Assembly: GCA_964451705.1 (NCBI GenBank)
Contig: CAYVIV010000001.1
Span: 62,807 to 126,806 of the forward strand
Direction: 5' to 3'
DNA length: 64,000 nt
Origin: an uncultured Candidatus Peribacteria bacterium
Lineage (GTDB): Bacteria > Patescibacteriota > Gracilibacteria > UBA1369 > GCA-2718715
Part shown: positions 25,910 to 61,970 of the stretch, piece by piece
Layout: every line of letters starts with the position of its first letter
Position numbering within the stretch: the first letter of the stretch is position 1
Notes under the pieces: model-generated
Database searches by the model: none
What the model saw: only the letters and a program-made list of their open reading frames with translations
What the model was told of the DNA's origin: nothing
Program-made: the position numbers and the translations under genes

Positions 25910-26000
25910 AGTTTCTTTTTGCAGTTATTTTATGTTTTTAGCTTTGTATTTGTCAAATTGGCTTTTTAATTTTATAATTAATGCACTTAGTTTTACAAAC

Positions 26001-39817: not shown

Positions 39818-39888
39818 AGTTTTTTTTAAATTATCATAGACAATAATCTTTCTTTTTGCTATTTTTATTTTACTTTTAGACACTTTAT

Positions 39889-39975
39889 GCCGAAGTGGCG
39901 GAATTGGTAGACGCGCGGGTCTCAAAAACCCGTTCAGGCAACTGAGTGAGGGTTCGATTCCCTCCTTCGGCACCA
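39889..39975 (+). tRNA. tRNA-Leu (anticodon CAA), CCA encoded
   Basis: I folded it by hand. Acceptor GCCGAAG/CTTCGGC; D arm GCG-GAATTGGTAGA-CGC; anticodon arm CGGGT-CTCAAAA-ACCCG (anticodon CAA); long variable arm TCAG-GCAA-CTGA; T arm GAGGG-TTCGATT-CCCTC; then ACCA. Confidence 0.9.
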
Positions 39976-40011
39976 TATAGTGTTTTTAACTGTGCCTTTT
40001 ATAGATATTGC

Positions 40012-44448: not shown

Positions 44449-44962
44449 GTGTTTGCACTAAGTCTACAATCATCCAGCTACATAATGCTATTATTAAACC
44501 AAAAATTGCATTTTTGACTGTAGCTTTGGCTTTGGTGTCTTCTCCTTGGACCATGGCCAAGAAGTATTGATAACCACCCAAAACAATAAAGAGCATAGAT
44601 AGTACTCCGGCGAGTACACTTAGATTTTTAATTAAATAAACCACAAATGGTTTCCACATATACAATCGAATCCTTCCAGTGACTATGGCACAGCCCAATA
44701 AATCTGCTTCTGTTAACTCTTGATTCACTTTTGTTAAAGCCCATGCAAAGCGCTTATAGCTATTATATTGGTGACTTGTGAGGTTTTCACCACCATCATT
44801 GCTAGTGTTTTGGTAGGCTGTGTCGAAGCTTCTTAATTTCTTTAGGCAATTAGCTCTGGATTGGTCGGTTTTGGGAAGGACAGAAAAGTCCTGGGCAAAA
44901 ACTGATTGGCTTAAGCCGAGGAAAAGAGCTGTGAATATGAATAATTTGATGATTTTGGTCAT
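44435..44962 (-). CDS. Small secreted/membrane protein, VirB2/TrbC-like (T4SS-pilin-like) architecture
   Basis: 175 aa. A signal peptide (FTALFLGLSQSVFA) is followed by two C-terminal TM helices around a short polar loop (LAGVLSMLFIVLGGYQYFLAMVQGEDTKAKATVKNAIFGLIIALCSWMIV). Confidence 0.5.
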   Translation of the reverse strand: MTKIIKLFIFTALFLGLSQSVFAQDFSVLPKTDQSRANCLKKLRSFDTAYQNTSNDGGENLTSHQYNSYKRFAWALTKVNQELTEADLLGCAIVTGRIRLYMWKPFVVYLIKNLSVLAGVLSMLFIVLGGYQYFLAMVQGEDTKAKATVKNAIFGLIIALCSWMIVDLVQTLVSY

Positions 44963-46383: not shown

Positions 46384-46399
46384 CTAGATGCCTGAGTTC

Positions 46400-49075
46400 T
46401 TAGTAGAAGGTTACAAGCCCTTTACTGGAGGCTAGGTATAGAAATTCTATAATTTCTTGTCGTGTGATTTTTTGTGCAGGATTATATTCAGCTTGCAAGC
46501 TATTGAGGTTTTTAGCTAAAAAGTATTTTTTAGCGAAGTCAGTACCATTAGCTAGGTTTTTTACAATTTGAGCATATGGTAGGTACCACTGGCTTTGTGC
46601 ATTTAAAGGAGTGTCTTTAAATGGTTTGTCTTGAACGTAATAGTCTATACTTGTGTTTAGTTGAGTGTGACCACTGTGGTTAATGCTTTCTATAAACAAC
46701 TTGTAGAACTCAGCTCGAGATACTGCCTGGTTAGGTCTAAAACTATCATCCTTGTAACCCTTTAAAAGCGTTCTACCGACCTTGTTGGCATTAGTATTCT
46801 TATAGACTGGGCTTTTGAATAAAGTTGCCATGTAGGGCATGTACCAAGCCTGTGGTTGCAGGTCATAGAATCCAAACTGTTCGTCTAATTCTGGATTGTA
46901 GTTTTCTAATTTTAAATTATTAGTTTTTACAATTAGAGCTACAGCTTCGGATCTTTTTAAAACATTATTTGGTCTGTAATACTGAGATTCAGAAATGATT
47001 TTTTTGTCCAAAGCAAAATCAGCTGCCTGGCATAGGTAGCTATCGGCTGGTATATCTAAAAATTTTCCACATGTATATTTTGCTCTTGAGCTAAAACCTA
47101 AAAAGGCCAACTGGCCTTTTGTAGATTCTTTATAGTCTCTTACGAGTGATGCTATTTGCGTCTCATAAATATTTGAGGAATATTCGTTGTGACTTATATA
47201 AAAACTTGTCATATCTGCATCTATACTTGTTGGGGTAACTGCAGTCACTCTAATCTGATATTCACCGTCTGTTAGATTGCGACTAGTAAACTCCCCTACT
47301 TCGTAATGAAAGCCACCTGTAACGACGCGATTTTTGAAGATAGTTTTAACTACTTTAGAGTCTTGAACTATTTCAGCAGTAACAGTAGCTTTGTTTTTTG
47401 AATTAAAAGAGATAAATGTTTTGGCAGTATTTGTAAGTACTTTTGGATTTACAGATAACTGTGTAATTAATGATTCATCAATTACTTGTTTTCTCTCTAA
47501 AACATTCGCAGGCACTACATATGTAGTTTTAAACTTTTGTGTAGTAGCCTTTGGAGTTGATGGAGTTTTCTTAACTGTTGTTTTTGGCATGTAAAGTCTT
47601 TGTACTGTTACTGTGTCATTAAGAACAGTCTTGTTGTTTGCTGTGTCGTATAAAGTAATTGCAACTGAATACTCACCAGCAGAAACTTTATCGCCTAATG
47701 TGTTTTTACCATTCCAAGTAATTGTTTGATTTTGAGATAAGACATTATTGTATTTTTTATTGTAGACAGTAGTCTTAGCTTTTTTGTTTACAATTTTCAC
47801 TTCTAAATCTTTGTACTGAGTTAAGTTAGTTAGGTTCACACCAAACTGAACTTTTTCGTTTCTGTCTGTATTAATAACGTCAAATGATTTTGTGAAACCT
47901 AATTCAGCTTTAAGGTTACTTGTTGCAATCTGTTTTTTGGCTTTAGCACTAAGTCTTGCTGCTCTAAATTGTGCAGGTGCTTCTGGTCTTTGAATCTGAG
48001 AAGCAGAGCTTACACCACGTGCTTGCAAGTTAAATGCTAAGTTAGCTTGATTTGTTGAGTTATTTTTTAGGATAATTGTTTGACTCTTAGTACCAAGCGA
48101 AGTTGCATTAAAAGTAATTTTTATATTAGCAACTTGATTAGCTGCAAGAGTTGTTGGATATGTAATTTTGAAATCACCTTGTTTTAGTTTTGCAGGCATT
48201 TGATACTTTCTTTTAGCTTCAAATGTTACTGGCTTATTGCTTAGGTTTTTAACTTGAACCTGTTGCATAACTTGAGTACCTACTAGGTTTGCTCCTAAAT
48301 CAAGAGTAGATTGAGAAACTTCGATTTGTCCATACTCAGTATTTGCCTGTGCACCTTGAGATGATCCTGTAATTTGAGTAAATAAATAGCTCTTCTTGTA
48401 GTCTGTAGTAGTTATAGCAAGTGTTGCTTTGCTAAGCTTTTTCTTTTTTGGTTTAAAGACAAATGTAATTTCTAGAGTTTCCCCGGCTTTAATAGTGCCA
48501 GGAATTCTCTCTTTCAAACTAATTGCTCCAGATGGAACTTGGTTTGTAGAAAGTTTTACATCGTAATCATTTGTGTTTGTAAGTTGAATACTAGTTTCAG
48601 AAACAGAACCAACTGGAGTTTTCTCTAACTTTACTTTGTTTGTAGAAAACTGTAGACCTTCGTTTGTAAGTTTCTTTTTTGTAAATCCTCTAAGTTGGAT
48701 AGTTTTTAGCTCTCCAGTGGATTCTAGTTGTAGTTGTAGTAAATCACTAAACTCCCCTTCGCCTGTAGCATGGTAGCTAATTGCTAGGGTTTTAGTTGAT
48801 TGTGCTAGTAACACAATTGGACTTGAATTACTAATAGAAAATGGAGCACTTACATTGGATACAACCATTACCTTTTCTGTGGTAGCACCTGTGTTTTCAA
48901 TGATAATTTCTCTAGTTTCTGTGTTATCCTTAGTCGTTAAAAAGTTAACGATTTCAGAATCTGGGTAAACTTTTATGTTTGAGTTTGTAGCAAACTCAGA
49001 TGCACTTACAAAGTTAGGTATAAGCAACGCAAACATTGTAAAGACACTTAATATTTTCTTAATTTTTGTAAACAT
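46400..49075 (-). CDS. Secreted surface protein: three PapD/ASH-like Ig domains, two FlgD-Ig-like domains and three C-terminal SLH domains
   Basis: 891 aa with a signal peptide (FALLIPNFVSASEF). Repeated beta-sandwich modules are present (IIIENTGATTEKV...; IQLTNTNDYDV...; VQVKNLSNKPV...), as are TWNGKNTLGDKVSAGEYSV (FlgD-Ig-like) modules. The SLH signatures include LKGYKDDSFRPNQAVSRAEFYKLF. Confidence 0.75.
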   Translation of the reverse strand: MFTKIKKILSVFTMFALLIPNFVSASEFATNSNIKVYPDSEIVNFLTTKDNTETREIIIENTGATTEKVMVVSNVSAPFSISNSSPIVLLAQSTKTLAISYHATGEGEFSDLLQLQLESTGELKTIQLRGFTKKKLTNEGLQFSTNKVKLEKTPVGSVSETSIQLTNTNDYDVKLSTNQVPSGAISLKERIPGTIKAGETLEITFVFKPKKKKLSKATLAITTTDYKKSYLFTQITGSSQGAQANTEYGQIEVSQSTLDLGANLVGTQVMQQVQVKNLSNKPVTFEAKRKYQMPAKLKQGDFKITYPTTLAANQVANIKITFNATSLGTKSQTIILKNNSTNQANLAFNLQARGVSSASQIQRPEAPAQFRAARLSAKAKKQIATSNLKAELGFTKSFDVINTDRNEKVQFGVNLTNLTQYKDLEVKIVNKKAKTTVYNKKYNNVLSQNQTITWNGKNTLGDKVSAGEYSVAITLYDTANNKTVLNDTVTVQRLYMPKTTVKKTPSTPKATTQKFKTTYVVPANVLERKQVIDESLITQLSVNPKVLTNTAKTFISFNSKNKATVTAEIVQDSKVVKTIFKNRVVTGGFHYEVGEFTSRNLTDGEYQIRVTAVTPTSIDADMTSFYISHNEYSSNIYETQIASLVRDYKESTKGQLAFLGFSSRAKYTCGKFLDIPADSYLCQAADFALDKKIISESQYYRPNNVLKRSEAVALIVKTNNLKLENYNPELDEQFGFYDLQPQAWYMPYMATLFKSPVYKNTNANKVGRTLLKGYKDDSFRPNQAVSRAEFYKLFIESINHSGHTQLNTSIDYYVQDKPFKDTPLNAQSQWYLPYAQIVKNLANGTDFAKKYFLAKNLNSLQAEYNPAQKITRQEIIEFLYLASSKGLVTFY

Positions 49076-49105
49076 TTTTGGGTGGTTAATTTAAATTAAG
49101 ATGCT

Positions 49106-49134
49106 ACTTTAGCTTTAAACTTTAATTTTGTCAA
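49106..49134 (-). promoter_or_regulatory. Putative promoter of the 891-aa SLH gene (TTGACA, 17-nt spacer, TAAAGT)
   Basis: On the minus strand, TTGACA is at 49134-49129 and TAAAGT is at 49111-49106. The start codon lies about 30 nt downstream. Confidence 0.45.
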
Positions 49135-49206
49135 TATAAAAGCTTAGGAATTGGAAATTCCGTAGGCCAGGCATTTATTATTCAATTAAGGTACAGTGAG
49201 TGGTAA

Positions 49207-49236
49207 GGGCGGCGCGCCGCGCAGGCGCGCCCGCCC
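49207..49236 (-). other. Near-pure G+C hairpin (12 bp, one bulge), possible terminator or RNA-stabilising stem
   Basis: The sequence is GGGCGGCGCGCC-GCGCA-GGCGCG(C)CCGCCC. It begins 4 nt after the stop of the 1257-aa ORF. There is no U-tract on either strand. Confidence 0.4.
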
Positions 49237-49240
49237 AAAC

Positions 49241-52200
49241 TTAAAACTCTCTATATGCTGGTGTGTATTGTGGTAGGTTGTAGCCAGTTGTGTAGTTGTA
49301 GTTTTGATAGACGCGGTTTTGTGTGTTTTGAGTTTGGAATAAGTATGGATTGCGTGCTGCTCTAATTAGTCTAGCTGTCATTGCTACTAGGTCTCCTATA
49401 GTGGCATTAGCTTCTGGATTTATTGTTAGGCTGAGTTCTTGGAACTTTTCTTGTATTGCTCTAACTCTGCTAGAAACTGCCTCTTGAGTACTTAGGTCTG
49501 CTTGTGGTTCTAAAAGTTTTGCAGCGATTAGTAATGTTTGTGCTGCTTGTATTTGTCTTAGTGGCTGGTAGGCATTTAGATTACCGTTGGCATCTGGAGA
49601 AATAACTCCAAATTTTAGGAGCGAGTATGCAGGTACCAACCACCAGTGGTTATTTGCATTTGCTATAACTTCTGCATCTATATCATTTATATAGGCAATT
49701 AGCTCATCTGCGTTGGGTTCAAATAGCGGTAATTTTTGAGTTACCTCAAGTAGTTTTTCTGTAAAGCTAAATAAATGCGCATTGGTAGCAGCTTTGTCGT
49801 AGTTAGAAACCTGTTTGGCATTTGCAAACTGTCCTTTGTAGACTCCAAGTTCATGCAGGTAGACTAGGTCGTTGCAAATTGGATTGTTCATATTCATATC
49901 AGTATACAAGACCATACATTTTGGATTGGGTGGTGGTGTGTTTTGATGTTTGTTTTTAAAGAATTTAGCAAATGGTCCACCTGTGCCTTGGCCAGAATAA
50001 TATGGGAAGCCCATACCAAGCGAGCTGCCTTGCATGTAGATTTTTGGCTGAGCTCTAAAGGCTTTTTCTATAATCTCTACATATTTAATGATTTTGCCTT
50101 CTGGGCTTAGGTTAATGCCAACAATTTTTAGATTGTAGGTGCCTGGTGTTTGGATCTTGGATGTATTGTAATTTTCTATCATTACTAGGTCTGGTCCTTG
50201 TAGTTCTGCTTCTCTTGTAAAGCGATTACACGCTTTGCGGACAAAGTTTTTACTGACTGTTCTCACGAAATCCTGTGAGCAATATGTGTAGAGGGCACCT
50301 TTTTGTCCTCTGGTATTTCTATCGGAGCTATGACCTTGGTATGAGAGTTGTAAGAGGCCTAGATTCATGAAATTTGGGACTTCTATATCAAAGTTTATGT
50401 TGTCGCCTATTTCGAACTCGGGAGTTATTTCTGCGTCAAGCTTGTCTGAACCTGTAGTAATTCCATCTTCATTTCGGTCGCTAGGGTCGATAATATCTAT
50501 AAAGGAACTAGTACGGAAAATGTCTGGATTGGTCTCAGATAATGAATTACGGTCTACTAACAGGATACTAGGTTGGCTGTTTGTTTCGTCTGGCACAAGA
50601 ATTCCAGTTGCCTTAAGGACTGTGCCTGTGTTTGTGTTAGTTCTAATTAGACGCCGGCCAAGATGTGGCTCGGTGCCTTCTATGAATATCAGAATTTCTC
50701 TATTAATAAGTTGATCAGATAATATTGATGTTTCACAGCTAATTTTACTACCTGCGACTGCAGTGTTGTTATTAGAACACTTGAAAATGTTATTTTTTAG
50801 TTTTTCTGCTCGTAGTTCTTTATCTGCTTTGATTTCTATTGTTCTACTTTCGTGTTGGCTTATACTAGAGTTATCACTGAGAATTTTAAAGGTATAAAAG
50901 CCTGGGCTAAAAGTGTTTTCTATATCAAAGCTATTAAGATTGAGGCTTAAGTCATTCTGACTTATTGTCTTACATGGTGTGATAATGTTTAGCTTTTGTT
51001 GAGTCTCAATGTTTGAAATTTGAACTTGATACTTATCTACAGCTTCCAAGCATATAAAACTACCTTGAATTAGGTCGGTATTGCCTCCTTCTACTAATAA
51101 ATCTTGTTTGGCAATTTCTAATAAGACGTCTGTTTCTAGTTCTAGTTCATTTTCAGCATTTAGGATATTTAGTTTGATAGCACTGCAACTACTGTTATGG
51201 CAAGCAAGCATGTCACCTAGGTTGAGTGTGGCAGTTTCCTGGGTGTCATCGACTTGTACAGAGCTAGGCCGGGTTATGATTTCATCGTTTAAGGTGAAAA
51301 TATATTTATTGGCCTGTTCTGGGAGATTTTCACCAGTGATTTCTAGACTAACATTGTCAGCAGATAGCAGACTTACTAGTTGGGCATCTACCTGTATATC
51401 ACTGTCTGATTCATCGTCGCTATCGCCACCGTCGTCGTCGCCGTCACTGACTACATTTCTGATTTCGAATGTTTTGTTAGTTTCGAGTTTTTGTGTTTCA
51501 AAGACTATGATACTTGCATCATATGTGCCATTTTCTAGGTTTGCAGTATTATTATTGGCTTCGAATAAAAGGCTACCTGGTGTTACAGCAATTAGATCTA
51601 CTATAATTTTTTTATTGGAACCTGCTTTGCTTAATTCCAGTTTAATAGTTTCTTGCCTGAGCTCTAGGTTTTCTGGGAGATTGTTTATAAATTCTGCATT
51701 AGCTGATAATTCAAATAATACTGTATTGTTATCCCTTGCTCTTACTGTATCTTGGCTTGCTGCCTGGGCACTTAGTGCCGCCTGGGCAGCTTGTAGTCTG
51801 TCTTTTACATGTATTATGAGAATTTTGCTTCTGTTTTTATTACCAGCAGGCCCATCGGCAAAGTTTGATTCACCAGGTGGCACCTGACTTTCAATTTCGA
51901 TTGCAAGTAAATAATCTTTTCTAAAGTCTAGCTCAACATTTTGCAGGCTGGTAATATCAACAATTTGTTTGCTAAATGTTCTCACATTTTTGCTAGCTGT
52001 TTTATGAATAACATTGATATCTGTGTCAGTAGCGGCTGCAGCATCCCCTGCTGCCGCACCAGCTGCTGCTGCTTGAAATCGTATATTAAGCTGAGTACCA
52101 GATTGCTGGCTACTAAAATCTATTGCTTCAAGAAGGTTTTTTGCTAATAAGGCTGTGATTGTTTGTGGGTCTACTTCTAAAAGTATTGATTGGTAATTAT

Positions 52201-53014
52201 AATTAGACTGATTACTTTGAATTAAAAGATTAGTTTGAGAAATATCAAATAAGCTTACTTTGCTGCCAATATCACTGTTTACAAAGTTAATATCTGCAGC
52301 ATCTACAGCGCCAGCTGGTAGGCTGAGATCTTGCTGACTTATAAAGCTATTGTTGTTAGCGGTTATAGTATTGAGCTCCTTGTAATTTAGGCTAAAGTAC
52401 AGGTCTTCTTTTGTACTTTCTAGGTCATTGATTAAATTGGCATTTCTGCTAGGTTCATTATCATCACCACTACAAGCAGATTCAATTGCAGCATTGTATA
52501 TTAAACTAAGTTTTTGAATATCTTCATAGACAATAAAACCTGCTCCTTGTTGAATGGTTTCTAGTTCAAAATCATCGTGTAATAAAGGACTAACTATCTC
52601 CCGGGTAATAACTTCCGTTATTGGATTACCATCTTCATCATTCTCTCCTGTATCTACTAGTTCATCGATAGATATGGTAGTGGTTTGGTTGTTGTATAAG
52701 TCTACAATTTGAAAGAACTTGTCAATTGCATTGCTGTCAGTGTTGTTGGAGAGTAAGGTGTTAATGACCTCTTTTTGTTTATTGAGATCACCTGCAGAAT
52801 TTGTAGCTACTGCCATCGGGTTTGGGCAGGTATCAAACTTTGATTCAAAAGCAGTTGTACTTACAAGCCGCTCTGTAAATGCCTGTTGATCTGGCACACT
52901 AAGAAAGCCTTTGAGCAAATTACTTTCTATGTTTTTGTTTAGGCTTATACTACTAATAAAAATTGCAAATACTGCAACTATGGCTAGGATTGAATATTTT
53001 CGCTGTTTAGTCAT
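49241..53014 (-). CDS. Giant (1257 aa) N-terminally anchored surface protein with SLH-like C-terminus, paralog of 53273-58459
   Basis: It has an N-terminal anchor (ILAIVAVFAIFISSISL), an acidic tract (SDGDDDGGDSDDESDSD), Ig-like modules and a C-terminal SLH-like block (CNDLVYLHELGVYKGQ...NHWWLVPAYSLLKFGVIS...). Segments are colinear with the 1728-aa protein. Confidence 0.75.
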   Translation of the reverse strand: MTKQRKYSILAIVAVFAIFISSISLNKNIESNLLKGFLSVPDQQAFTERLVSTTAFESKFDTCPNPMAVATNSAGDLNKQKEVINTLLSNNTDSNAIDKFFQIVDLYNNQTTTISIDELVDTGENDEDGNPITEVITREIVSPLLHDDFELETIQQGAGFIVYEDIQKLSLIYNAAIESACSGDDNEPSRNANLINDLESTKEDLYFSLNYKELNTITANNNSFISQQDLSLPAGAVDAADINFVNSDIGSKVSLFDISQTNLLIQSNQSNYNYQSILLEVDPQTITALLAKNLLEAIDFSSQQSGTQLNIRFQAAAAGAAAGDAAAATDTDINVIHKTASKNVRTFSKQIVDITSLQNVELDFRKDYLLAIEIESQVPPGESNFADGPAGNKNRSKILIIHVKDRLQAAQAALSAQAASQDTVRARDNNTVLFELSANAEFINNLPENLELRQETIKLELSKAGSNKKIIVDLIAVTPGSLLFEANNNTANLENGTYDASIIVFETQKLETNKTFEIRNVVSDGDDDGGDSDDESDSDIQVDAQLVSLLSADNVSLEITGENLPEQANKYIFTLNDEIITRPSSVQVDDTQETATLNLGDMLACHNSSCSAIKLNILNAENELELETDVLLEIAKQDLLVEGGNTDLIQGSFICLEAVDKYQVQISNIETQQKLNIITPCKTISQNDLSLNLNSFDIENTFSPGFYTFKILSDNSSISQHESRTIEIKADKELRAEKLKNNIFKCSNNNTAVAGSKISCETSILSDQLINREILIFIEGTEPHLGRRLIRTNTNTGTVLKATGILVPDETNSQPSILLVDRNSLSETNPDIFRTSSFIDIIDPSDRNEDGITTGSDKLDAEITPEFEIGDNINFDIEVPNFMNLGLLQLSYQGHSSDRNTRGQKGALYTYCSQDFVRTVSKNFVRKACNRFTREAELQGPDLVMIENYNTSKIQTPGTYNLKIVGINLSPEGKIIKYVEIIEKAFRAQPKIYMQGSSLGMGFPYYSGQGTGGPFAKFFKNKHQNTPPPNPKCMVLYTDMNMNNPICNDLVYLHELGVYKGQFANAKQVSNYDKAATNAHLFSFTEKLLEVTQKLPLFEPNADELIAYINDIDAEVIANANNHWWLVPAYSLLKFGVISPDANGNLNAYQPLRQIQAAQTLLIAAKLLEPQADLSTQEAVSSRVRAIQEKFQELSLTINPEANATIGDLVAMTARLIRAARNPYLFQTQNTQNRVYQNYNYTTGYNLPQYTPAYREF

Positions 53015-53190
53015 TGTTTTTGGCTAATTTAACTTTATACTATATCATTTTTTCATGAAGATAAAAAGCTTTGCTTTGCAAAATCGCTAAAAACTTGTCT
53101 GCCTTTTTTTACTGTTTTTTTTGAAGCTTTTGGATCTGATTACTATACTGGAATAATGTTTCTGTTGTTTGGTAGTTTATGCTTTTAGGA

Positions 53191-53226
53191 TTCAAAAAGC
53201 TCCCAGGTTTTTATGCTGGGAGCTTT
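53191..53226 (-). terminator. Rho-independent terminator after the 1728-aa gene
   Basis: The minus strand reads AAAGCTCCCAG-CATAAAAAC-CTGGGAGCTTT followed by TTGAA. It lies 47 nt after the stop. Confidence 0.6.
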
Positions 53227-53272
53227 GAAGTTTTTGGTTTATATTTTTAGGCTTACCGTCAGGTTTTGCCTA

Positions 53273-56200
53273 TTAATACGCCGGGTAATACCCGCTATAT
53301 TGTGTGTGGGCTGTACTGTACATTTGACCTTGAGGGTACATTTGTTGGTTTAGGCCACGAGCTGCATAGGATTGTTGTCCCATGTATGGATTGTTTGCTG
53401 CATACAAGCTTGGGTTTTCCATAATTTGCATGCTTCTAGATAATAGTAGGATTATGTCTCCCATATTAGCTGGAGCTGTTGGGTTAATGTTAAGTCCATA
53501 CATAATGTATTGAGCTACAACATCTGCATACCATGGATTGTTTGCCGCGAGTTGTTGTGGAATTAGTCCTGTTGCCATACCAATTAGCTTGGCTGCCTCC
53601 GCCTGTGTTACTGGGGCAAATGGATTAGCATTGTATTGTGCGTCTCCTTGAATGTATCTGTAACCAGTTAAACTGTATAAAGGAGTTAGCCACCATTGAT
53701 TGGATGGATTAGAGACTATGTTTTGATTTATGTCTGAATAGTATCCAATTAGTGCACCATGGTTAACTTGGACTGGTGGAAGATTTTGGGTGGTTTGTAG
53801 TAATTGGTAAACCAAAGAGAATAAATGTGCTCTTACTGCTTGTTGGTAAGCTCCAGAGACAACGTTATTGCCCATTTGGACACCTCGGTAAAGATTTCTT
53901 TCGTAAAGGTACATAATGTCTGCACAGAGCTCTTGTCTTCCTGCTAGGTCTGCAAAGACTGTCGAACATTGTTGTGTGTTAACTTGTACAACTGGACTCA
54001 TTGGGTTAAAGCCCATAAGTGTTCCATAGCCTACTGCATGACCACCGTAGTTATTGTTTTCTAGTTCAAAGGCATTTTCTATAACGATTTCACCAATTTG
54101 TAGTTGTACACCGTGAGCGTCTGCATATGCTGTGTTTGAGTCAATCTCAGCTAATTCTCCTGAAACTGAGTTGGCATCGTAGATTAGATCTATAATAATG
54201 TCATAATCTCCCTCTACTTCTATGCCTGAAGTATCAAAATCTTCAACTTCTAGGCTGTCTGGACCTTGTAGCAGACTTCTTTGGTAGTGATCTTCACAAT
54301 ATCGGTCCATTCTGTTTTGAGCTCTACGACCTTCGAGGAATTCGGTTAAGTCATCTTGGCAATATATATACATAGACCTCTTATTCTCTCTTCTAGTGTC
54401 TCTATCATCTTGATTGCCGGCATAGGATACTTGTAGGAAGTAAATATCTATTTCCTCATCTATATTAATGTCGAAATCAATTAGCTCTCCAGACTCTATA
54501 GTGTTGCCAATGCTTACATCTACATAGTCTTCTATAGTATCATTTCCACCTCTAGTTTGAGTATCTGTTCCGCTGTTAGATGTTTTCACTAGTACTGTCG
54601 ATGCGGTTTGAACCTCCTGATAACCGTTGCTAGTTGGAATCAAGACTACTATATGTTTGGTTGTTTGCTCTGTTGCCGTAGGAATCACTAGACTATTGGC
54701 AGAGTAGCCATTGTTGATTACAGATAGTGGTACAGCTTGATCGTTAGTAGTACCCTCTATTTTTATTTTGTAGTTGGCACCAATTGTTGCATTTGGGAAT
54801 GGGTTAGTTGTGTTACAGGCTGTTGTTGCACCTGTGATGACAACATTTTTGTCTCCAGCAATTGTGTGACCATCTTGATTTTTATAATCAGGATATGTTC
54901 GTCCACAACTAAATGGTAGAAGTGCTACCTGGCTTGCTGATAGTAAATATGTGTTAGATGTACTGAAATTAATGCTTGTGTACTGATTAATAATTTCTTG
55001 TCCATCTACTATCATACTTACATCTACATTGTAGCCAGTAGATTTTTCTAGACTGTCGATATTATTAATGCTTGCAGAGTCACCTGTACAAGCTTTTTGG
55101 TAGGAATTGCTTTCTCCTGTAGCTTGATTGGTAACTGTTACTTCATATAGGGTGCTAATACCTGCAAGGCATTCAAATTCTACTGTAGGATTTTCTTCAT
55201 TAATTACAGATGCGTTAAGTGGGCTGCTAATAGCAAGTTTGTTGACGTTCAAAATTACTCCAGTTAGCTCATTTTTGTAAGCTAATTTGTAAGGAGGGCA
55301 ACTGCTATTTTCTAGGCAAGGTAGCAAATGATTGCTCTTTGAGTTAAATATGAGCGTAAGATCCCCATCTGTTGTTAGTGTGGCCGAGTTGGCAGTTGCA
55401 TGTACTACTAGGCTTCCTGCCTCTCCTGTAACAATTTTGTAGTCTGAGGCAGTGGTTGTTAGGTTCGTGCCTGTTAGTTGAATACTGTAGTTTTTTGGAT
55501 TAATTGTAACTGCTTGACTATCTATGGATGTTTCTTGATTTTCAAGAGCTCCATCTGCATCGGCATCGGCATCTTCATCTGCTTCGATTATTGTGATGGT
55601 TGTGTTTGTGTTTTCAAACTGATCATCATAAATTGAAATACATATATTGTACTCTCCAGGCTCTAGACCACCTGGTACTGGATTAGTTGTGGTTATACTA
55701 CCATTTTCGTTAATAGTAACAACTGCTCCTAGTATTGTCAGTTCATTGTCATCATCTGTGACTGCACAAGTTTTCCCATTGTCAGACGGTTTGAGACCAT
55801 ACTGATAAGCCTCTGTAACATCTCTTGCTGGCAGAGTTAGGTCACCCTGTTGTGGCTGTTGTGGAATTGTGGTGATTATTATATTTTCGTTTGGAGTATA
55901 ATTATCTTTATCCCCATCTGTAACTGAAGCATCTACTAGTGCTTCAGTTGTATCAATGTTGTCGCGGAAAATATAGATGAATACTTTTTGTTCTAAATGT
56001 TTGTTTTTTGAATTCTCTATATAGTTATGTTCGAAATCATCAGTTTGGTCTGAAGCAACTCGAACTAGTAGGACCTGAGGTTGATTTGGATTAATTCTTA
56101 AATCAGTGTTAACATTGCCCCTAAAATTTCTTGCGTCAGCGTTTAACTCAGCTAGATTTATAGTAGAACTAAAGTTATGGTCTTGAATCTCAGTGTGGTA

Positions 56201-58459
56201 TTTGGTGACTAGGTTAGCACCTATGCTAAGTGCCTGTGTACTTCCACCTGCGCTAACTGCATTGCTACCACTGGTTCCTAGGATGCCTGGAGTTAGGTTA
56301 GATAGTGATTTGATAAAGTTTGTATCTAGTGGCACTGCTGGTATTAAGTCATTAGTTGATTCTACTTGTATAAGTGCTAAATCTACTATGCCATCTTTAA
56401 TGTCAGATTTTATAACAAGTTGCTCGGGGAAAGCGCCATTTATCTCGCTGCCTGCTCGAAAGTCTATTGCTAGGCTTGGCTCGCTATTTACAATTTGGAA
56501 ATCTTGGTGTAAGCGTAGTTTAATACCCTCTTTAACTCTATTTATTTCTTGGTATGTTCTGGCTATAAGGCTTTCTGCGTGCCTTTCTGGTGCACCATCT
56601 TCAGAGGCTACCAATAAAGCATCTAGCAGGCCAACATATTCCTCTAGAGAGGCTTTAATAGAGTCCATGGCATCTGCGTCTACTGCTTGAATATTGGGAT
56701 GACCTAGTTCTCCTGGGATGTTTGTGGTGTTATCAATGTGAGTGTTAAAAGTTGCTCCACCACCACCTAGTATATTATCTGCGACTGTGTTCCTTTTTGT
56801 TGTTGCTTCACCAGAAACAGCAGCACGTTGTGCTTCGGCCTTTTGTGTGAATACAGCTCCTGCTGCCCTAGCTGTGAAAGTTTGCTCTTTGGCTGTTAAA
56901 GTAAATTTTATAATTTCTGCAAGGCTGTTTAATTGCTCTTTTCCGGTATCGAGGATTGGTGTTAGGCCATCTACAATTTCGTTTTGGTTTTCAAGGATGG
57001 CTAAGTACTCAATTTGGGCTGTTGCCAGGGTTGTAAATGTTGCATCGTCACCATTGATTACAGCTGCTTTTGCTTCTGTAACAGCAGCTAGGGCTGCCCC
57101 TGCATCTATTCCAAGAGCTAGACGCTGCGGGTCGGATACTGGTGGTGCTGGTGGTGCTGCTACTTCATCATCATGTAGTGTACCGTACCTAATGGCCAGT
57201 TGACCAACGTAGGCAGTAGTGTTGGCCTCTGTTATGCCTGGTGTTGCTAGGCTAAAACCAAGAATAGCTTCGATAGCCACATTAGCACCATCTGTGAGGA
57301 TGTTGGCTGTTTCGCTGTCTTCGACTGCTGTGATAGCTTGTGTAAGTTGAGGGGCTGGGTCTGTTGCTAGATCAGCTGTCGCAGCTATGTTATTAGTTAG
57401 TTTAGTACCGCCTTTTAACTCACTTCCTTGTACAAGGTCTGAGTCTACATAGTCAGTAAGTTCTTCAATAGCATCTCGATATTCGCTAATTTCGGTGTTT
57501 ACGGCCGCAAGTATATCATCTTGAGTTTCACCTTGGGTAAAGTCAAGAGCGTCTGTGGCCGCTCCTCGACCTGCTGGGTTCAAGTCTGTACTGATTGCAT
57601 CAAAGTTAGTTTGGTCGTCACTGTTACCAAGGAAGATTGTGGGCTCGATCTGACCTGATAAATCTAGGCTAGAGGCAATTATATTTTTGTTACTAGTCAG
57701 GTTGTTTAGACTTGCTGTTGAGGATAGATTGCTGTTTGTGACTATATGTTCTTGTGTTTCATATCGGGTTTCGAATAGTTTTACTAGGTCGTTTGTGCTA
57801 ACTAGTGTTGGTGTACCGTCTACATCGTGCCAATACGCTGGAATGCTGTCTATACTAGCACTGCAACCTGTTTGATAGGCAAAATGATTGATTAATATCA
57901 CTTTTTGGATATCTTCGTAGCTTATAAAAGGAGTGACCGCTGCGTCTCCACTTGTTAGATCTAAGCCTAAATTGCCCTCAATTAACGCTGACCGGTTGTC
58001 ACTTGTAATAGTTTCGTAGAAATTTTTGATTGCTAGAAAATTTGCAATCTCATCTGGATCTGTTCTATCTGCTAATAAAGCAATTAGTGTATCGTATTGG
58101 TCTTCTAAGTTTCCGCTTTCAAAGCCATTGCTTTCCCTACAATCGTTTTGGTTATCAAAGAGAGGATTGTCTAATTCATCTGGTGCTTCTCCTCTAAAGA
58201 ATAGAGCAAAGTTGCCTCCTTCGGCACCAGCTTTAAGTTCCATCGAGTCGACCTCGAAACGCTCCTCGCCAATGCTTGTTCTTATGTAGTCTTCAGCGTT
58301 ACTAAAGTCTTGTGTTCCATCGGCAGCTGGTGCTGTGACATCAAAGGTTAGGTAGCCTTTGAACATGTCTCCTGTGTTTGTGTATAGCCCGATAATTATA
58401 GCTATTGGTACCACAATGGCCCCAAGTATACCGAGCAATCTACGATTATTTGATTGCAT
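53273..58459 (-). CDS. Giant (1728 aa) N-terminally anchored surface protein with SLH-like C-terminus
   Basis: It has an N-terminal anchor (LLGILGAIVVPIAIIIGL), an Ala-rich helical region, an acidic tract (EADEDADADADG), Ig-like modules (PGGLEPGEYNICISIYDD) and an SLH-like C-terminus (CADIMYLYERNLYRGVQ...NQWWLTPLYSL...VTQAEAAKLIG). The tail is rich in Q, Y, P and M. Confidence 0.75.
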   Translation of the reverse strand: MQSNNRRLLGILGAIVVPIAIIIGLYTNTGDMFKGYLTFDVTAPAADGTQDFSNAEDYIRTSIGEERFEVDSMELKAGAEGGNFALFFRGEAPDELDNPLFDNQNDCRESNGFESGNLEDQYDTLIALLADRTDPDEIANFLAIKNFYETITSDNRSALIEGNLGLDLTSGDAAVTPFISYEDIQKVILINHFAYQTGCSASIDSIPAYWHDVDGTPTLVSTNDLVKLFETRYETQEHIVTNSNLSSTASLNNLTSNKNIIASSLDLSGQIEPTIFLGNSDDQTNFDAISTDLNPAGRGAATDALDFTQGETQDDILAAVNTEISEYRDAIEELTDYVDSDLVQGSELKGGTKLTNNIAATADLATDPAPQLTQAITAVEDSETANILTDGANVAIEAILGFSLATPGITEANTTAYVGQLAIRYGTLHDDEVAAPPAPPVSDPQRLALGIDAGAALAAVTEAKAAVINGDDATFTTLATAQIEYLAILENQNEIVDGLTPILDTGKEQLNSLAEIIKFTLTAKEQTFTARAAGAVFTQKAEAQRAAVSGEATTKRNTVADNILGGGGATFNTHIDNTTNIPGELGHPNIQAVDADAMDSIKASLEEYVGLLDALLVASEDGAPERHAESLIARTYQEINRVKEGIKLRLHQDFQIVNSEPSLAIDFRAGSEINGAFPEQLVIKSDIKDGIVDLALIQVESTNDLIPAVPLDTNFIKSLSNLTPGILGTSGSNAVSAGGSTQALSIGANLVTKYHTEIQDHNFSSTINLAELNADARNFRGNVNTDLRINPNQPQVLLVRVASDQTDDFEHNYIENSKNKHLEQKVFIYIFRDNIDTTEALVDASVTDGDKDNYTPNENIIITTIPQQPQQGDLTLPARDVTEAYQYGLKPSDNGKTCAVTDDDNELTILGAVVTINENGSITTTNPVPGGLEPGEYNICISIYDDQFENTNTTITIIEADEDADADADGALENQETSIDSQAVTINPKNYSIQLTGTNLTTTASDYKIVTGEAGSLVVHATANSATLTTDGDLTLIFNSKSNHLLPCLENSSCPPYKLAYKNELTGVILNVNKLAISSPLNASVINEENPTVEFECLAGISTLYEVTVTNQATGESNSYQKACTGDSASINNIDSLEKSTGYNVDVSMIVDGQEIINQYTSINFSTSNTYLLSASQVALLPFSCGRTYPDYKNQDGHTIAGDKNVVITGATTACNTTNPFPNATIGANYKIKIEGTTNDQAVPLSVINNGYSANSLVIPTATEQTTKHIVVLIPTSNGYQEVQTASTVLVKTSNSGTDTQTRGGNDTIEDYVDVSIGNTIESGELIDFDINIDEEIDIYFLQVSYAGNQDDRDTRRENKRSMYIYCQDDLTEFLEGRRAQNRMDRYCEDHYQRSLLQGPDSLEVEDFDTSGIEVEGDYDIIIDLIYDANSVSGELAEIDSNTAYADAHGVQLQIGEIVIENAFELENNNYGGHAVGYGTLMGFNPMSPVVQVNTQQCSTVFADLAGRQELCADIMYLYERNLYRGVQMGNNVVSGAYQQAVRAHLFSLVYQLLQTTQNLPPVQVNHGALIGYYSDINQNIVSNPSNQWWLTPLYSLTGYRYIQGDAQYNANPFAPVTQAEAAKLIGMATGLIPQQLAANNPWYADVVAQYIMYGLNINPTAPANMGDIILLLSRSMQIMENPSLYAANNPYMGQQSYAARGLNQQMYPQGQMYSTAHTQYSGYYPAY

Positions 58460-58529
58460 GTTGCATGGTTAAATTTTATATATTTTAATAGGTATAGCGC
58501 AAAAATGCGATTACCCAAATAATAGCTAG

Positions 58530-58550
58530 GCATAGACATATAGTCTATGC
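58530..58550. promoter_or_regulatory. Perfect palindrome GCATAGAC-ATATA-GTCTATGC upstream of the 1728-aa gene
   Basis: It has 8-bp perfect arms and a 5-nt spacer. It lies 71 nt upstream of the start at 58459 and directly downstream of the preceding terminator. Confidence 0.3.
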
Positions 58551-58554
58551 TTTT

Positions 58555-58586
58555 TGCAAAAAACCGCTTTACAAAAAGCGGTTTGC
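58555..58586 (-). terminator. Rho-independent terminator after the 374-aa SLH gene
   Basis: The minus strand reads AAACCGCTTT-TTGT-AAAGCGGTTT followed by TTTGC. It starts about 30 nt after the stop at 58615. Confidence 0.6.
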
Positions 58587-58614
58587 AGCTTTGGCAATTG
58601 CTGGATTAATGTTT

Positions 58615-59739
58615 TTAGAGAAAGAGCACTTCGTACATTAGGTCTACAGCAGTCGATCTTTGGATGTGTCGCATAGGTTCTATGTAGGTTCCTCGTTGTC
58701 TCCAAAAGTCAACGATTCGACTATACCAAGGACCAGATGCAGCATCTGAAACATTTGCTCCACGGATATTTGCTATAACTTTGGCAAATTCTGCCTCGGA
58801 TACTATATCAAATGGCCTCAGGCTGGAGTCGCTGTACCCTTTCATAATACCTTTTTCTATGAGTCTGGCAGCAGCTTGAGTCCACCAGGTGTTTTCTTTT
58901 AGGTAAATTTGGCTAATGTCTAGATCCTTAAATTGTTCTAGCAAGCTCAAGTTGGCCTGTGTACGCAGGTACTGGCTTTGGTTTAGCATACGGTCTGCTA
59001 AGACAAAGAATTCAGCACGCTTTAAGGTATGATCTAAGTTAGCTTTTGGCAGCCTAAATTGTTCTGGAATACGTGTGTTTTGATTTTTCTGACCTGTGAA
59101 AATTCCCATTTCTCTAAGAACTGTGATTTTCCCACATCTTAGGTTGGTTTTTCTAACATCGTAAAAATAATCTTGGCAGCGTAAGTTACCAGTATCTAGT
59201 GTCCGGTTGTTTGGTACCATGGTGTATCTACTGCGGCCTGGTCTTTGGAAATTATCAAAGTCCGAAAAGTCGTAGCTATTATACCTGTCTGTTCTTTGGG
59301 CTTTTATATTAATTTTGGACTGTGTTTTAAAACGGACACCTGTTTCCCAAATATAAATTTTTTCTGAACCTGCATTTTTTAGGTATATGCTTGGGCAAGA
59401 AACTAGGTTTAATTGGTCTTGGTAACAAAAGTCTGATTTTTCGTTATCTATCTCCATGCGTGTATTATCCATTATCTGAAAACCTAGGGGTAACCTATAG
59501 TAGCAGTTAGTAGATTGGTATTCATCACGGTTGTCGCAATCGACCTTAATATGTTTTACATATTCAGTCGCTCTAATTAATGGTCGTTCGACCATTTGCA
59601 TATTACCGTAGTAATTTGGGCTCAGCGCCCCTTTAAATAAATTGGGATTAAGGGTATCTATACTCTTAACACCAAAAACCACAAGTAAGAATGCCACAAA
59701 GCCTCCTAATATACGGTTTTCAAATTTCCTATTCGACAT
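58615..59739 (-). CDS. N-terminally anchored SLH-domain envelope protein (374 aa)
   Basis: It has an N-terminal anchor (ILGGFVAFLLVVFGV) followed by LFKGAL. The C-terminal SLH signatures are CGKITVLREMGIFTGQ and TWWTQAAARLIEKGIMKGYSDSSLRPFDIVSEAEFAKVI. Confidence 0.7.
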   Translation of the reverse strand: MSNRKFENRILGGFVAFLLVVFGVKSIDTLNPNLFKGALSPNYYGNMQMVERPLIRATEYVKHIKVDCDNRDEYQSTNCYYRLPLGFQIMDNTRMEIDNEKSDFCYQDQLNLVSCPSIYLKNAGSEKIYIWETGVRFKTQSKINIKAQRTDRYNSYDFSDFDNFQRPGRSRYTMVPNNRTLDTGNLRCQDYFYDVRKTNLRCGKITVLREMGIFTGQKNQNTRIPEQFRLPKANLDHTLKRAEFFVLADRMLNQSQYLRTQANLSLLEQFKDLDISQIYLKENTWWTQAAARLIEKGIMKGYSDSSLRPFDIVSEAEFAKVIANIRGANVSDAASGPWYSRIVDFWRQRGTYIEPMRHIQRSTAVDLMYEVLFL

Positions 59740-59773
59740 AGATTCAGTGTTAAATCTTTTAATTTTAACACAT

Positions 59774-60874
59774 TTATCTATTTTTTACAAGCATCTTATA
59801 TAATTGTTGCCCACAAAGTCGCAAATTATACTTGTATGGATTTTTGGGTTTAATGAGATCGTTTGGAATCTTATAGTCCTTAAGCTCTTGAATGTAGTTG
59901 AGTCCAATCTTATGAAAGAGTTGTTTGTAAGGCTGTATTTTTAGACAAATAACAGGAGTTTTGTGGACTAGAGCCTCGTAAATTGGTAGCCCAAAGCCCT
60001 CGAATTTAGATGTATACAAGAGTGCTTTGGATTCTTGTATTAATTTGAATTTTTCCTGGTCACTAATATTAGATAAAAACTCTATATTTGTGAGTTGAAG
60101 TTTCTTGGCTGATTTAAAGCAACTTTGCCCAGAACCAATGATTTTAAACTTATGATCCAAATTTGCCTGCGCAATTTTGTAGATTAACTCTAAGTTCTTA
60201 CGCTTTTGCAGTGTTTGTATGCAAAGGATCTGCCTAGTTTTGTTTTTGATTTTATAGTCCGGATGAATCGCCTCTGGCTTGTTTATGCTTGGATACACAA
60301 TTTTAATGGCTTTCTTACCATAATTTTTAACTAAAATCCTCCTACTATAGTCTGAGTTGCTTAGCACAAGTCTGGCTTTTTTATATATGTTTTTTGGTCT
60401 TATAAGCCAAAAGTATAGTCTTGCCCGTGCCGACAGGCTGTTTTTACAGTATTTAAAGGCTAAGTCATGAAAATATATAAAACTTTGACTAATTTTACTC
60501 AGAGCAAAGGGGCGAATATCTAGGCACAAGTATGAAATTTTTTGCTGGTTACGCCTTTTCGACTTAAAATTCAACTTTTTATAGGCTAATTTGTCAATTT
60601 TAGGCCAGTTAAAGAATGCCAAGCTTAAATTCAGCAGTATATTTGGGACTTTTAGGTGTTTGTGTCTAATGTTGCTTTTTTTTAGATAGCTTGCGAGTTT
60701 GTCCAAATGAATTTTGGGTTTTTTGAAACCACTACTAAAAAAGACGATTTCTTGGTCGGATTTTAATTTTTTAACAATCTCATCTATAAACAATCTATTC
60801 ACTGTCTGAACGCCTCCATATTTGTAGCTTTGGAGTGGTCGAAGATCAATTATAAATTTCTTTATGCGCGACAT
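59774..60874 (-). CDS. Glycosyltransferase, GT-B fold (GT4-like)
   Basis: 366 aa. The C-terminal SKFEGFGLPIYEALVHKTPVI is an EX7E-type motif. Confidence 0.7.
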   Translation of the reverse strand: MSRIKKFIIDLRPLQSYKYGGVQTVNRLFIDEIVKKLKSDQEIVFFSSGFKKPKIHLDKLASYLKKSNIRHKHLKVPNILLNLSLAFFNWPKIDKLAYKKLNFKSKRRNQQKISYLCLDIRPFALSKISQSFIYFHDLAFKYCKNSLSARARLYFWLIRPKNIYKKARLVLSNSDYSRRILVKNYGKKAIKIVYPSINKPEAIHPDYKIKNKTRQILCIQTLQKRKNLELIYKIAQANLDHKFKIIGSGQSCFKSAKKLQLTNIEFLSNISDQEKFKLIQESKALLYTSKFEGFGLPIYEALVHKTPVICLKIQPYKQLFHKIGLNYIQELKDYKIPNDLIKPKNPYKYNLRLCGQQLYKMLVKNR

Positions 60875-61970
60875 AGGCAGTATTTACTATTTTTTTAAAT
60901 TTTTCGATAAATTTTTGGCTTTCAAACTCTTTAGCATGATTTTTAATGTATTGTCTGTCAAAGTCAATCCTATCTAGTTTTTCGATTGCCTGATTGAGGC
61001 AGTTTACAGTTTGTTCATCAAAGAGAATCCCTGTTTTGCCATCTATGAGACTATCACGAATCCCCCCTTTATTATAGGCTATTACTGGGACTCCATAGCT
61101 TTGGGCCTCGGCTTGGACTATGCCAAAATCCTCAATTTGTGGGAAAATAAAGGCCTTGGCGTGAGCAAAATAGTTTTCAAGAGTTTTTCTACTCACAAAC
61201 CCAAGCAACTTTGTATTGGGACTGGTGTTGAGTTGTTTGAGTACTGGTAGCATTTCGCCTGTGCCAATTATGACTAGATTTTTTTGAGTTTTATTAAAGG
61301 CTTTAACAATCAATTCAAAATGTTTGTGGGATTTCAATCTACCCACAGCTAGGTAGTAACTACTTTTCTCTGGATTTTTATCGTTGCTAAATTGAGCTTT
61401 TGGGATCCCTGGATTCAAAACTACTGATTTGGCACCATAGAATTTTTGGATGCGTTTTTGAATATAGCTAGAATTAGCGATAAACTTATCAACCCTTTGG
61501 GCTGCTAAATAATCCCAGATCCTTATTTTGTGTAATGGGAATTTGGTAAATAGCTTGAGTACTTTGGGGAATTTATACTTATTAATAAAATCAATATAAT
61601 TGCCCCAAACATAACGCATAGGAGTGTGACAATAGCAAATATGCAGAGTTTCGACCTTGGTTATGACACCTTTACTACAAGCAAAACTTGAAGAAATTAC
61701 AATGTCGTATGCAGATAAATCAAAGTTTTCAAAAGCATACGGCATGAGACTCAAATACAACTGATGTTTGGTCTTAGCAAACGGCAAGTGCTGAATAAAG
61801 CTAGTTTTAGGTTTGTATTTAGCAAATTGCGGCATAGCTTTTGCGTTGTAGATGCTTGTATATAAATCTGCATTTGGAAAGGCAGTTAATATATCTGCAA
61901 CAACTTTCTCAGCTCCACCTTGATTTGTTAGCCAATCTGCCACTACGGCTATTTTTAGATTCTTCTGCAT
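60846..61970 (-). CDS. Glycosyltransferase family 4
   Basis: 374 aa. It has an N-terminal GGAEKV and EDFGIVQAEAQSYGVPVIAYNKGG (EX7E motif). Confidence 0.85.
   Translation of the reverse strand: MQKNLKIAVVADWLTNQGGAEKVVADILTAFPNADLYTSIYNAKAMPQFAKYKPKTSFIQHLPFAKTKHQLYLSLMPYAFENFDLSAYDIVISSSFACSKGVITKVETLHICYCHTPMRYVWGNYIDFINKYKFPKVLKLFTKFPLHKIRIWDYLAAQRVDKFIANSSYIQKRIQKFYGAKSVVLNPGIPKAQFSNDKNPEKSSYYLAVGRLKSHKHFELIVKAFNKTQKNLVIIGTGEMLPVLKQLNTSPNTKLLGFVSRKTLENYFAHAKAFIFPQIEDFGIVQAEAQSYGVPVIAYNKGGIRDSLIDGKTGILFDEQTVNCLNQAIEKLDRIDFDRQYIKNHAKEFESQKFIEKFKKIVNTAYVAHKEIYN

Follow-up and report, generated by a model that had tools for sequence, protein, structure and literature searches.

A conserved envelope locus of a small-genome marine Candidatus Peribacteria bacterium encodes a pair of giant paralogs and further proteins with predicted SLH-type wall-binding ends

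Small-genome bacteria of the candidate phyla radiation (CPR) are thought to live attached to other cells, and the molecules of their envelopes are almost unknown. In other bacteria, the principle by which surface-layer homology (SLH) modules anchor proteins to a pyruvylated secondary cell wall polymer is already known from SpaA, Sap and OmpM, and the anchoring scaffoldins of the Clostridium thermocellum cellulosome combine Ig-like strings with C-terminal SLH repeats. In OmpM-type proteins of diderm Terrabacteria, the SLH domain joins a membrane-embedded part to the peptidoglycan-bound polymer (PMC10628300), an arrangement to which we liken the proteins described here. They are encoded in a 64-kb stretch of DNA from an uncultured Candidatus Peribacteria bacterium (contig CAYVIV010000001.1, positions 62,807 to 126,806; hereafter the window, whose numbering is used for all coordinates given without a contig or locus label), part of a genome of 0.93 Mb in 54 contigs, typical in size for CPR/Patescibacteria, with an estimated completeness of 95% and a G+C content of 36%. 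Six consecutive genes on the minus strand encode a family 4 glycosyltransferase (GT4) of 374 aa (60846-61970), a GT4-like enzyme of 366 aa (59774-60874), a tether-like SLH protein of 374 aa (58615-59739), two giant paralogs of 1728 aa (giant A, 53273-58459) and 1257 aa (giant B, 49241-53014), and a secreted Ig-rich SLH protein of 891 aa (46400-49075). The order and lengths given for these genes in an earlier, sequence-only reading of the window match the list of open reading frames (ORFs), and all peptide strings that it cited were found in the translations. The interpretation that we favour, and hold to be rather probable, is that the four structural proteins are wall-tethered surface proteins with a common SLH-type anchor, in which the 374-aa protein serves as tether or adapter, the giants form fibrils or adhesins, and giant B depends on a partner.

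Two of the four, the 374-aa and the 891-aa protein, are SLH proteins in the strict sense, with scores of 29.1 and 33.2 bits against Pfam SLH (PF00395; gathering cutoff 20.8 bits), and orthologs of the SLH-positive proteins are likewise annotated with PF00395. The complete triple-SLH module at the C-terminus of the 374-aa protein (58618-59187) was modelled by AlphaFold (AF2) with a pLDDT of about 80-88, and the top nine Foldseek matches of the model were all SLH structures of SpaA or Sap (TM-score 0.64-0.71 over ~185 columns, E 2e-5, probability 1.0). The structures matched are complete SLH trimers solved with pyruvylated ligand, and both SpaA (PDB 6CWN/7SV5) and Sap (PDB 3PYW/6BT4) have the same three-repeat helical spindle as the module model. 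Several features set the locus apart from these two systems: the module is N-terminal in SpaA of Paenibacillus alvei and Sap of Bacillus anthracis but C-terminal here; it opens with a conserved Cys-x12-13-Cys pair; three of its four carriers bear a conserved N-terminal transmembrane (TM) helix; and in the giants it has diverged beyond detection by Pfam, with the pocket residues of giant B lost.

The tails of all four proteins align over about 200-240 residues, the C-x12-13-C pair coming first and three SLH-like repeats following it. A profile built from the tails of the giants (14 sequences) and searched against the 2741 ORFs of the genome picked up the 374-aa protein at E 5e-22 and, at E 4e-8, a canonical SLH protein of contig C32; the 891-aa protein was not recovered in this search. 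When the 14 members of the giant family were scanned with Pfam, SLH was the family matched most often (5/14 at E<=1, best 1.4e-4). Moreover, a shared-module profile combining the 374-aa family and the giants matched eight chains in the PDB, all of them SLH proteins, including SbsB (1.8e-6), Sap (5.7e-6) and OmpM-type chains (PDB 8BYS/8BZ2), and residues 1031-1224 of the giant B model show the same helix pattern as an SLH trimer. The tails of giant A (module at 53390-53995) and giant B (49343-49924) thus appear to be divergent SLH derivatives, a relationship established transitively. That all four proteins end in SLH-like modules, as had been proposed, is directly supported by Pfam for the 374-aa and 891-aa proteins and for the giants only by this chain of evidence. 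A Cys-bridged, C-terminal and partly degenerate SLH derivative of this kind is new.

In SpaA, the primary ligand pocket is formed by SLH-Arg43 of repeat 1 (TRAE), SLH-Gly29 of repeat 2 (GIIxG) and SLH-Trp13 of repeat 3 (PMC6081394). The corresponding motifs of the 374-aa family (KRAE/SEAE/QRST and GIFTG/GIMKG/GTYIE) show exactly the pattern of kept and lost positions seen in SpaA (TRAE/TVEE/TRAQ and GVFSG/GLMQG/GLFSK), repeat 2 lacking Arg43 and repeat 3 lacking Gly29 in both, and both SpaA-type pocket triads appear intact in this family. In the alignment, the 891-aa family has Arg43 in all three repeats (with the exception of the relative L009, which has Lys in repeat 3) and an intact primary triad, and the giant A family retains the triad of Arg, Gly and Trp. 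In the giant B family, by contrast, Gly29 of repeat 2 is replaced by Pro or Thr and the Trp of repeat 3 is missing, and the window copy additionally has Asn for Arg43. The giants would thus form a paralog pair that differs in pocket integrity, which is new and offers a natural comparison between a copy that kept the pocket (A) and one that lost it (B). Having lost the primary triad, giant B probably depends on a partner, and its hold on the wall would be through association with that partner, most simply its paralog giant A.

As in the SpaA/Sap system, the genome encodes a pyruvyl transferase of CsaB-like type (PS_pyruv_trans, E 2e-17; G000:C3:4107-5012, L011). The gene adjoins RNase HII and a block of rhamnose-nucleotide genes with two RmlA-type nucleotidyltransferase genes, RmlD and RmlB-type genes (neighbours to 10674). 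The window itself encodes a TagA/WecG-family glycosyltransferase (26682-27431, plus strand; Pfam Glyco_tran_WecG, E 1.3e-45), the sole WecG-family gene of the genome and, by inference, a candidate wall-polymer partner of the locus; a class-I methyltransferase gene (25932-26681, plus strand) directly precedes it. Furthermore, an LCP ligase is encoded in the genome (E 1e-34). With CsaB-like, TagA-like and LCP enzymes all present, anchoring of the structural proteins to a pyruvylated wall polymer is a plausible inference, and the classic Gram-positive scheme of SLH modules and pyruvylated polymer is probably in use in this lineage. Sortase anchoring was ruled out, no LPxTG motif being found in any of the four structural proteins.

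The N-termini of the 374-aa protein and both giants share a leader consisting of a basic stretch, a hydrophobic helix and, after about 8-10 residues, the motif [LM][LF]KG[FYA]L. It reads LFKGAL in the 374-aa protein (helix and motif at 59584-59739), where a small beta domain (59302-59571) and then a disordered linker follow, MFKGYL in giant A (58316-58459) and LLKGFL in giant B (52871-53014). Genome-wide, the motif occurs at the N-terminus of only four ORFs, namely these three and an 80-aa protein on contig C5 (G000:C5:39055-39189; L012:1056-1190). The leader is well conserved in orthologs, and in giant A more so than the several hundred residues that follow it; an ordinary Sec signal peptide would not usually be so well conserved. 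A profile of its 49 positions found matches in 28 of 121 genomes of the order, with the general form of a basic N-terminus, a TM helix, 6-10 residues and [LF][FL][KT]G-x-[LF]. On inspection (L016-L022), unrelated small and large proteins of several families carried LFKGFL, FFKGSL, LFKGYL, LLKGTL and other variants, most of them without SLH ends. No NCBIfam or Pfam model of known leaders matched the LFKG leader. The KG-[FYA]-L segment resembles the cleavage site of type IV prepilins; this candidate was rejected, since the hydrophobic helix precedes the motif and no leader model in either database matches. An order-wide N-terminal leader motif is new, and it could mark a dedicated sorting route.

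With a putative TM helix at one end and an SLH-type module at the other, the 374-aa protein and the giants recall the OmpM tethers, with the difference that the membrane part is an outer-membrane beta-barrel in OmpM and a single N-terminal helix here, presumably in the cytoplasmic membrane of a monoderm. A more far-reaching version would have these three proteins held at both ends, by the helix with its LFKG motif and by SLH modules on the wall polymer, in a heteromeric membrane-wall scaffold in which giant B, its pocket dead, is carried by giant A and the leader is an undescribed sorting or processing signal; we regard this version as speculative and unlikely.

Giant A and giant B align colinearly by BLASTP over 816 residues of their C-terminal two-thirds (E 2e-52, 27% identity), with a separate N-terminal match (E 8e-6), so that the colinear paralogy claimed for the two proteins was confirmed. 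Their cysteines (12-14; 14 in giant A) are paired and colinear as well. Cysteine totals are even in all four structural proteins (2, 12, 14 and 6), the only hydrophobic segment of each lies at the N-terminus, and high acidity gives the giants net charges of -65 and, in giant A, -146. Together, these features would fit exported, disulfide-bonded proteins. In giant A, the leader is followed by a conserved head (57860-58159), an Ala-rich hypervariable stretch (56510-57712), an acidic tract (55550-55585), a beta-rich C-terminal half with the SLH-derived module, and a Tyr/Gln-rich tail (53276-53389). For residues 440-1257 of giant B, AlphaFold (15-sequence alignment, mean pLDDT 74, low pTM) predicts five beta-sandwich domains (50048-51646), a low-confidence acidic linker (acidic tract at 51398-51448), a glycine/proline-rich linker, the helical SLH-like module and a disordered Tyr/Asn/Gln-rich tail (49244-49342). 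Foldseek matched the model only to generic multi-Ig, FnIII and macroglobulin (MG) strings with TM-scores of 0.1-0.2. A relationship to alpha-2-macroglobulin/complement thioester proteins, suggested by some of these matches, was rejected, as the scores are those of generic strings and a conserved thioester motif is lacking: giant B contains no CGEQ-type motif, and the lone CLEN of giant A sits in a C-x5-C loop that is not conserved in giant B. The Tyr/Asn/Gln-rich character of the giants' disordered ends is conserved in orthologs (L001, L008-L010), many of which terminate in YGYM or GYFY, and the Tyr-rich tails could be sites of cross-linking or tyrosine O-glycosylation.

A large N-terminal beta-sandwich string secured to the wall by a triple SLH at the C-terminus is also the plan of the C. 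thermocellum scaffoldins. Unlike these, the locus proteins have no cohesin or other recognisable functional domain, and the body of the giants constitutes an orphan family: Pfam and NCBIfam contain no family for giant A, and a sequence profile of the full giants gave no meaningful match in the PDB. A profile of the giant body, built without the SLH module and scored against 1.84 billion representative proteins, matched just 14, essentially all of them members of the same family or fragments thereof. A survey of 300 genomes sampled from the class did not turn up this protein family. At the level of the GTDB family, each of the three sampled members of the genus has it, a neighbouring genus contributes one distant relative of 1227 aa, and matches beyond the genus are weak or fragmentary. 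An orphan giant family in a CPR lineage is new.

In the mechanism that we propose, the SLH-type modules would dock the four proteins onto a pyruvylated, peptidoglycan-linked secondary wall polymer made with the CsaB-like, TagA-like and LCP enzymes of the genome. The 374-aa protein, with its TM helix, small beta domain and intact SLH trimer, would act as a membrane-to-wall tether or adapter, and the 891-aa protein would be a conventional Sec-secreted, Ig-rich, SLH-anchored wall protein. The giants would be fast-evolving, very acidic, disulfide-paired strings of beta-sandwich domains with a calcium-binding-type tract and an N-terminal region specific to the lineage; they would act as fibrils or adhesins at the surface and not as subunits of a lattice. 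The locus would provide a concrete candidate set for the wall-anchored surface of one marine lineage; current ideas are not overturned by it, and a known mechanism is extended to a poorly known group. Several observations weigh against this proposal. Pfam SLH has no match in giant A or giant B of the window, and a profile of the giants alone reaches the SLH chains of the PDB only marginally (E 0.04-0.15). The pocket residues were assigned by sequence alignment alone, using orthologs and the canonical SLH protein of the genome. The leader, judged from its sequence, is a possible membrane anchor or a possible signal for a dedicated processing route, the helix being retained or cleaved accordingly. 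Pyruvyl transferases serve other polysaccharides too. Finally, the 95%-complete genome yielded no UDP-GlcNAc 2-epimerase, the enzyme that provides ManNAc in model organisms, and the ligand may therefore differ from 4,6-pyruvyl-ManNAc.

The sequence-only reading had seen in this locus the toolkit of an S-layer or outer sheath. Its broader claim of a cell-envelope locus is borne out: the locus is conserved, and all four structural proteins combine a signal peptide or signal anchor with an SLH-type wall-binding end. The narrower reading, an S-layer in the sense of a lattice, is not supported. If it held, the giants, perhaps as a heterodimer, would be SLH-anchored lattice subunits glycosylated by the adjacent GT4 enzymes, the 374-aa and 891-aa proteins would be accessories, and several features of the locus would suit such a role: the SLH-type anchoring together with a CsaB-like gene, the acidity of the giants, a neighbourhood of glycosyltransferases and Wzy_C-type genes like that of S-layer glycosylation loci, the strong hairpin after each structural gene and the conserved synteny. 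Gram-positive S-layer proteins are usually free of cysteine, however, and the 12-14 paired cysteines of the giants are at odds with this, as are their conserved N-terminal hydrophobic helices, which may be retained in the membrane, the beads-on-a-string model with its low pTM and exclusively generic Ig-string matches, and the degenerate ligand pocket of giant B. Reports of S-layer genes from genomes of Peregrinibacteria (PMC4736985) count in favour of a lattice. Our literature search for a molecularly identified CPR S-layer found nothing specific. Furthermore, the genome contains 15 SLH matches in about nine proteins, so that the locus is not the sole home of SLH proteins, and the at least seven SLH proteins encoded elsewhere are equally good candidates for a lattice subunit. 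Taken together, we consider a true S-layer unlikely and prefer to view the giants as wall-tethered fibrils or adhesins.

For comparison across relatives, we used five independent metagenome loci, on contigs that derive from marine metagenomes, one of them a Tara sample. Gene order is the same in all five: the two GT4 genes (followed by two inserted genes in four relatives), the 374-aa gene, giant A, giant B, an Ig/SLH gene of 880 aa, der, a T4SS-type pilin gene and an AI-2E transporter gene. The locus is thus a genus-level, syntenically conserved envelope locus of a small-genome, CPR-type marine bacterium. In one relative (L007; a 614-kb, long-read-derived contig of ERZ28548091), the orthologs of the 374-aa protein, giant B and the 880-aa protein were called as several short fragments, which probably reflects frameshift errors of the assembly and not real pseudogenes.

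In a maximum-likelihood tree, the giants fall into A-type and B-type clades with 100/100 support, on stems of about 1.4-1.5 substitutions per site. Because both paralogs are also present in every relative, the duplication is older than all relatives sampled. The suggestion that the giants were recently duplicated is refuted by these long stems, by the 27% identity of the pair and by the same order of both paralogs in all five related loci. Tree and synteny likewise rule out recent duplication or strain-level variation in copy number; a near-identical strain variant of giant B (n=1) differs by an indel of two residues, located within the acidic tract.

The giants are the most divergent proteins of the locus, with 35-43% identity to their orthologs in the relatives, compared with 43-47% for the 891-aa protein and 66-67% for the 374-aa protein, the highest value among the four structural genes and one within the range of the flanking genes (PrsW, Na/Ca exchanger, Der, T4SS pilin, AI-2E, UvrC; 49-82%). 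Divergence is unevenly distributed in giant A, in which residues about 250-650 are hypervariable (8-17% column identity) and flanked by the conserved leader and head on one side and the conserved C-terminal half on the other; giant B is conserved more evenly along its length. The proposal of surface variation therefore holds in part: variation at the species level is concentrated in the giants, but the strain-level difference seen in giant B amounts to the two-residue indel only.

A second site of variation is the acidic tract. Here Pfam recognises 2 or 10 TSP_3 repeats in orthologs of giant B (E 2e-16 and 4e-75; L008:15095-19975; L010:15287-19363); the insertion point lies after residues 521-539, and the array lengthens the protein by 92 to 356 residues. 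An A-type ortholog has bacterial TSP3 repeats. In the window, no TSP3 match (PF02412 or PF18884) was found in either giant by the Pfam scan, and the acidic tracts have shrunk to 12-17 residues. Since the repeats of the orthologs sit exactly at the acidic tract, we read the tracts of the window as what is left of a TSP3-type array whose repeat number rises and falls between species. Species-level surface variation would then be placed in the hypervariable stretch of giant A and in an expandable calcium-binding repeat array. Very acidic multi-Ig strings with a DxDxDG-type array are also found in calcium-stabilised TSP3/RTX adhesins, such as the ice-binding adhesin region of Marinomonas (PDB 4P99), a structure that was among the Foldseek matches of the giant B model. 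Unlike in those adhesins, the tract of the window is short and missed by Pfam, and the giants have an SLH-type anchor and lack any RTX or type I secretion system signal.

These patterns of variation raise the question of host attachment, in which the giants would be adhesins of an episymbiont, with variable regions that track host surfaces and SLH-like tails that fix the proteins to its own wall. The giants are indeed the fastest-evolving genes of the locus, the hypervariable stretch of giant A spans 400 residues at 8-17% column identity, the putative repeat array expands and contracts as in RTX/TSP3 adhesins, and the family, shared by the three sampled members of the genus, has no more than weak or fragmentary matches elsewhere; in addition, a role in attachment has been proposed for large extracellular proteins of Peregrinibacteria (PMC4736985). 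Against this, nothing recognisable as an adhesin, lectin or receptor-binding domain emerged from Pfam, NCBIfam or Foldseek, conservation of the N-terminal head extends even across the two paralogs, and the single strain-level variant is nearly identical. We therefore judge a dedicated role in host attachment to be quite improbable as it stands, although it overlaps with the wall-tethered fibrils or adhesins of our preferred interpretation and does not exclude it.

Both glycosyltransferases at the head of the locus were correctly recognised by the sequence-only reading. In the 374-aa GT4, Glycos_transf_1 (E 9e-29, 100.6 bits against a Pfam cutoff of 26.4) and Glyco_transf_4 (34.6 bits) are both over cutoff; in the 366-aa GT4-like enzyme, Glycos_transf_1 is over cutoff (E 5e-16, 59.1 bits) and the N-terminal Glyco_transf_4 match (21.9 bits) is under the cutoff of 28.5. 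NCBIfam returned only generic GT4 models for the two proteins, far under equivalog cutoffs. Their identity to the orthologs of relatives is 50-63%. The two enzymes would probably build glycan, either for the wall polymer or for the structural proteins. The two genes overlap by 29 nt, and a gap of 34 nt separates the GT4-like gene from the 374-aa structural gene in the window. In four of the five relatives, by contrast, a 242-aa protein of unknown function and a 271-aa AstE/AspA-type zinc hydrolase are encoded between them (L001:1979-3532; L008:6984-8597; L010:6981-8597; L007:6652-8265), a gene pair absent from the window and from L009. The GT pair is thus a conserved neighbour of the structural genes but not a fixed part of the locus, and its functional tie to them is uncertain, since two unrelated genes intervene in most relatives. 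It may be that the six genes do not form one unit and that the GT4 pair works in the general synthesis of wall or lipid glycans, next to the structural genes by conserved neighbourhood only. The intervening genes, the purely generic GT4 matches and the separate hairpin after every structural gene all speak for such an arrangement; the position and orientation of the pair relative to the structural genes, constant across all loci examined, and the short gap of 34 nt in the window speak for a closer connection. We give the loose neighbourhood a substantial chance, if somewhat below even.

The 891-aa protein departs from the other three at its N-terminus, which is an ordinary, cleavable-looking signal peptide (49001-49075) with a VSA-type cleavage site in place of the shared leader. 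It continues with three choice-of-anchor-D/HYDIN-type Ig domains (48026-48970), supported by Pfam (HYDIN_VesB_CFA65-like_Ig, PF22544, E 3e-17, 63 bits against 25.5; ASH, E 8e-13) and by NCBIfam (choice_anch_D NF012200, 75.2 bits against 45, in three stretches), a FlgD-Ig-like region (47156-47866) and the triple SLH (46403-47098), and phmmer matched it to the SLH of Sap at E 1.5e-3.

Stable hairpins were found by direct folding after all four structural genes (z-scores from -2.8 to -5.0), on the minus strand. Those after the 374-aa gene (58555-58587; -15.3 kcal/mol, z -2.8) and after giant A (53191-53229; -17.9 kcal/mol, z -5.0) are followed by a T-run and have the form of terminators. The hairpin after giant B (49207-49236; -28.8 kcal/mol, z -3.6) comprises 30 nt of almost only G and C without a T-run, which is odd against a genome of 36% G+C; it is a candidate terminator or RNA stabiliser. 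The fourth lies in the 16-nt convergent spacer between the 891-aa gene and der (46370-46393; -10.5 kcal/mol, z -3.5). A generic consensus scan of the region for promoters and terminators gave no more matches than chance and overlooked the obvious hairpins. Upstream of the 891-aa gene, a promoter-like site (49106-49134, minus strand) reads TTGACA-17 nt-TAAAGT and agrees with the consensus at 10 of 12 positions, but such matches occur at chance level in the region, and promoter assignments are consequently weak. Of the individual terminators or promoters that had been ascribed to the structural genes, the hairpins are thus corroborated and the consensus-based signals are not.

Further genes of interest lie in the same window. 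Two genes of Wzy_C type are located at 33588-34634 and 38273-39976. A stand-alone gene for a type IV secretion system (T4SS)-type pilin (44435-44962, minus strand; Pfam T4SS_pilin, E 1e-8) has the AI-2E transporter gene on one side and der on the other, a position that is kept in the relatives.

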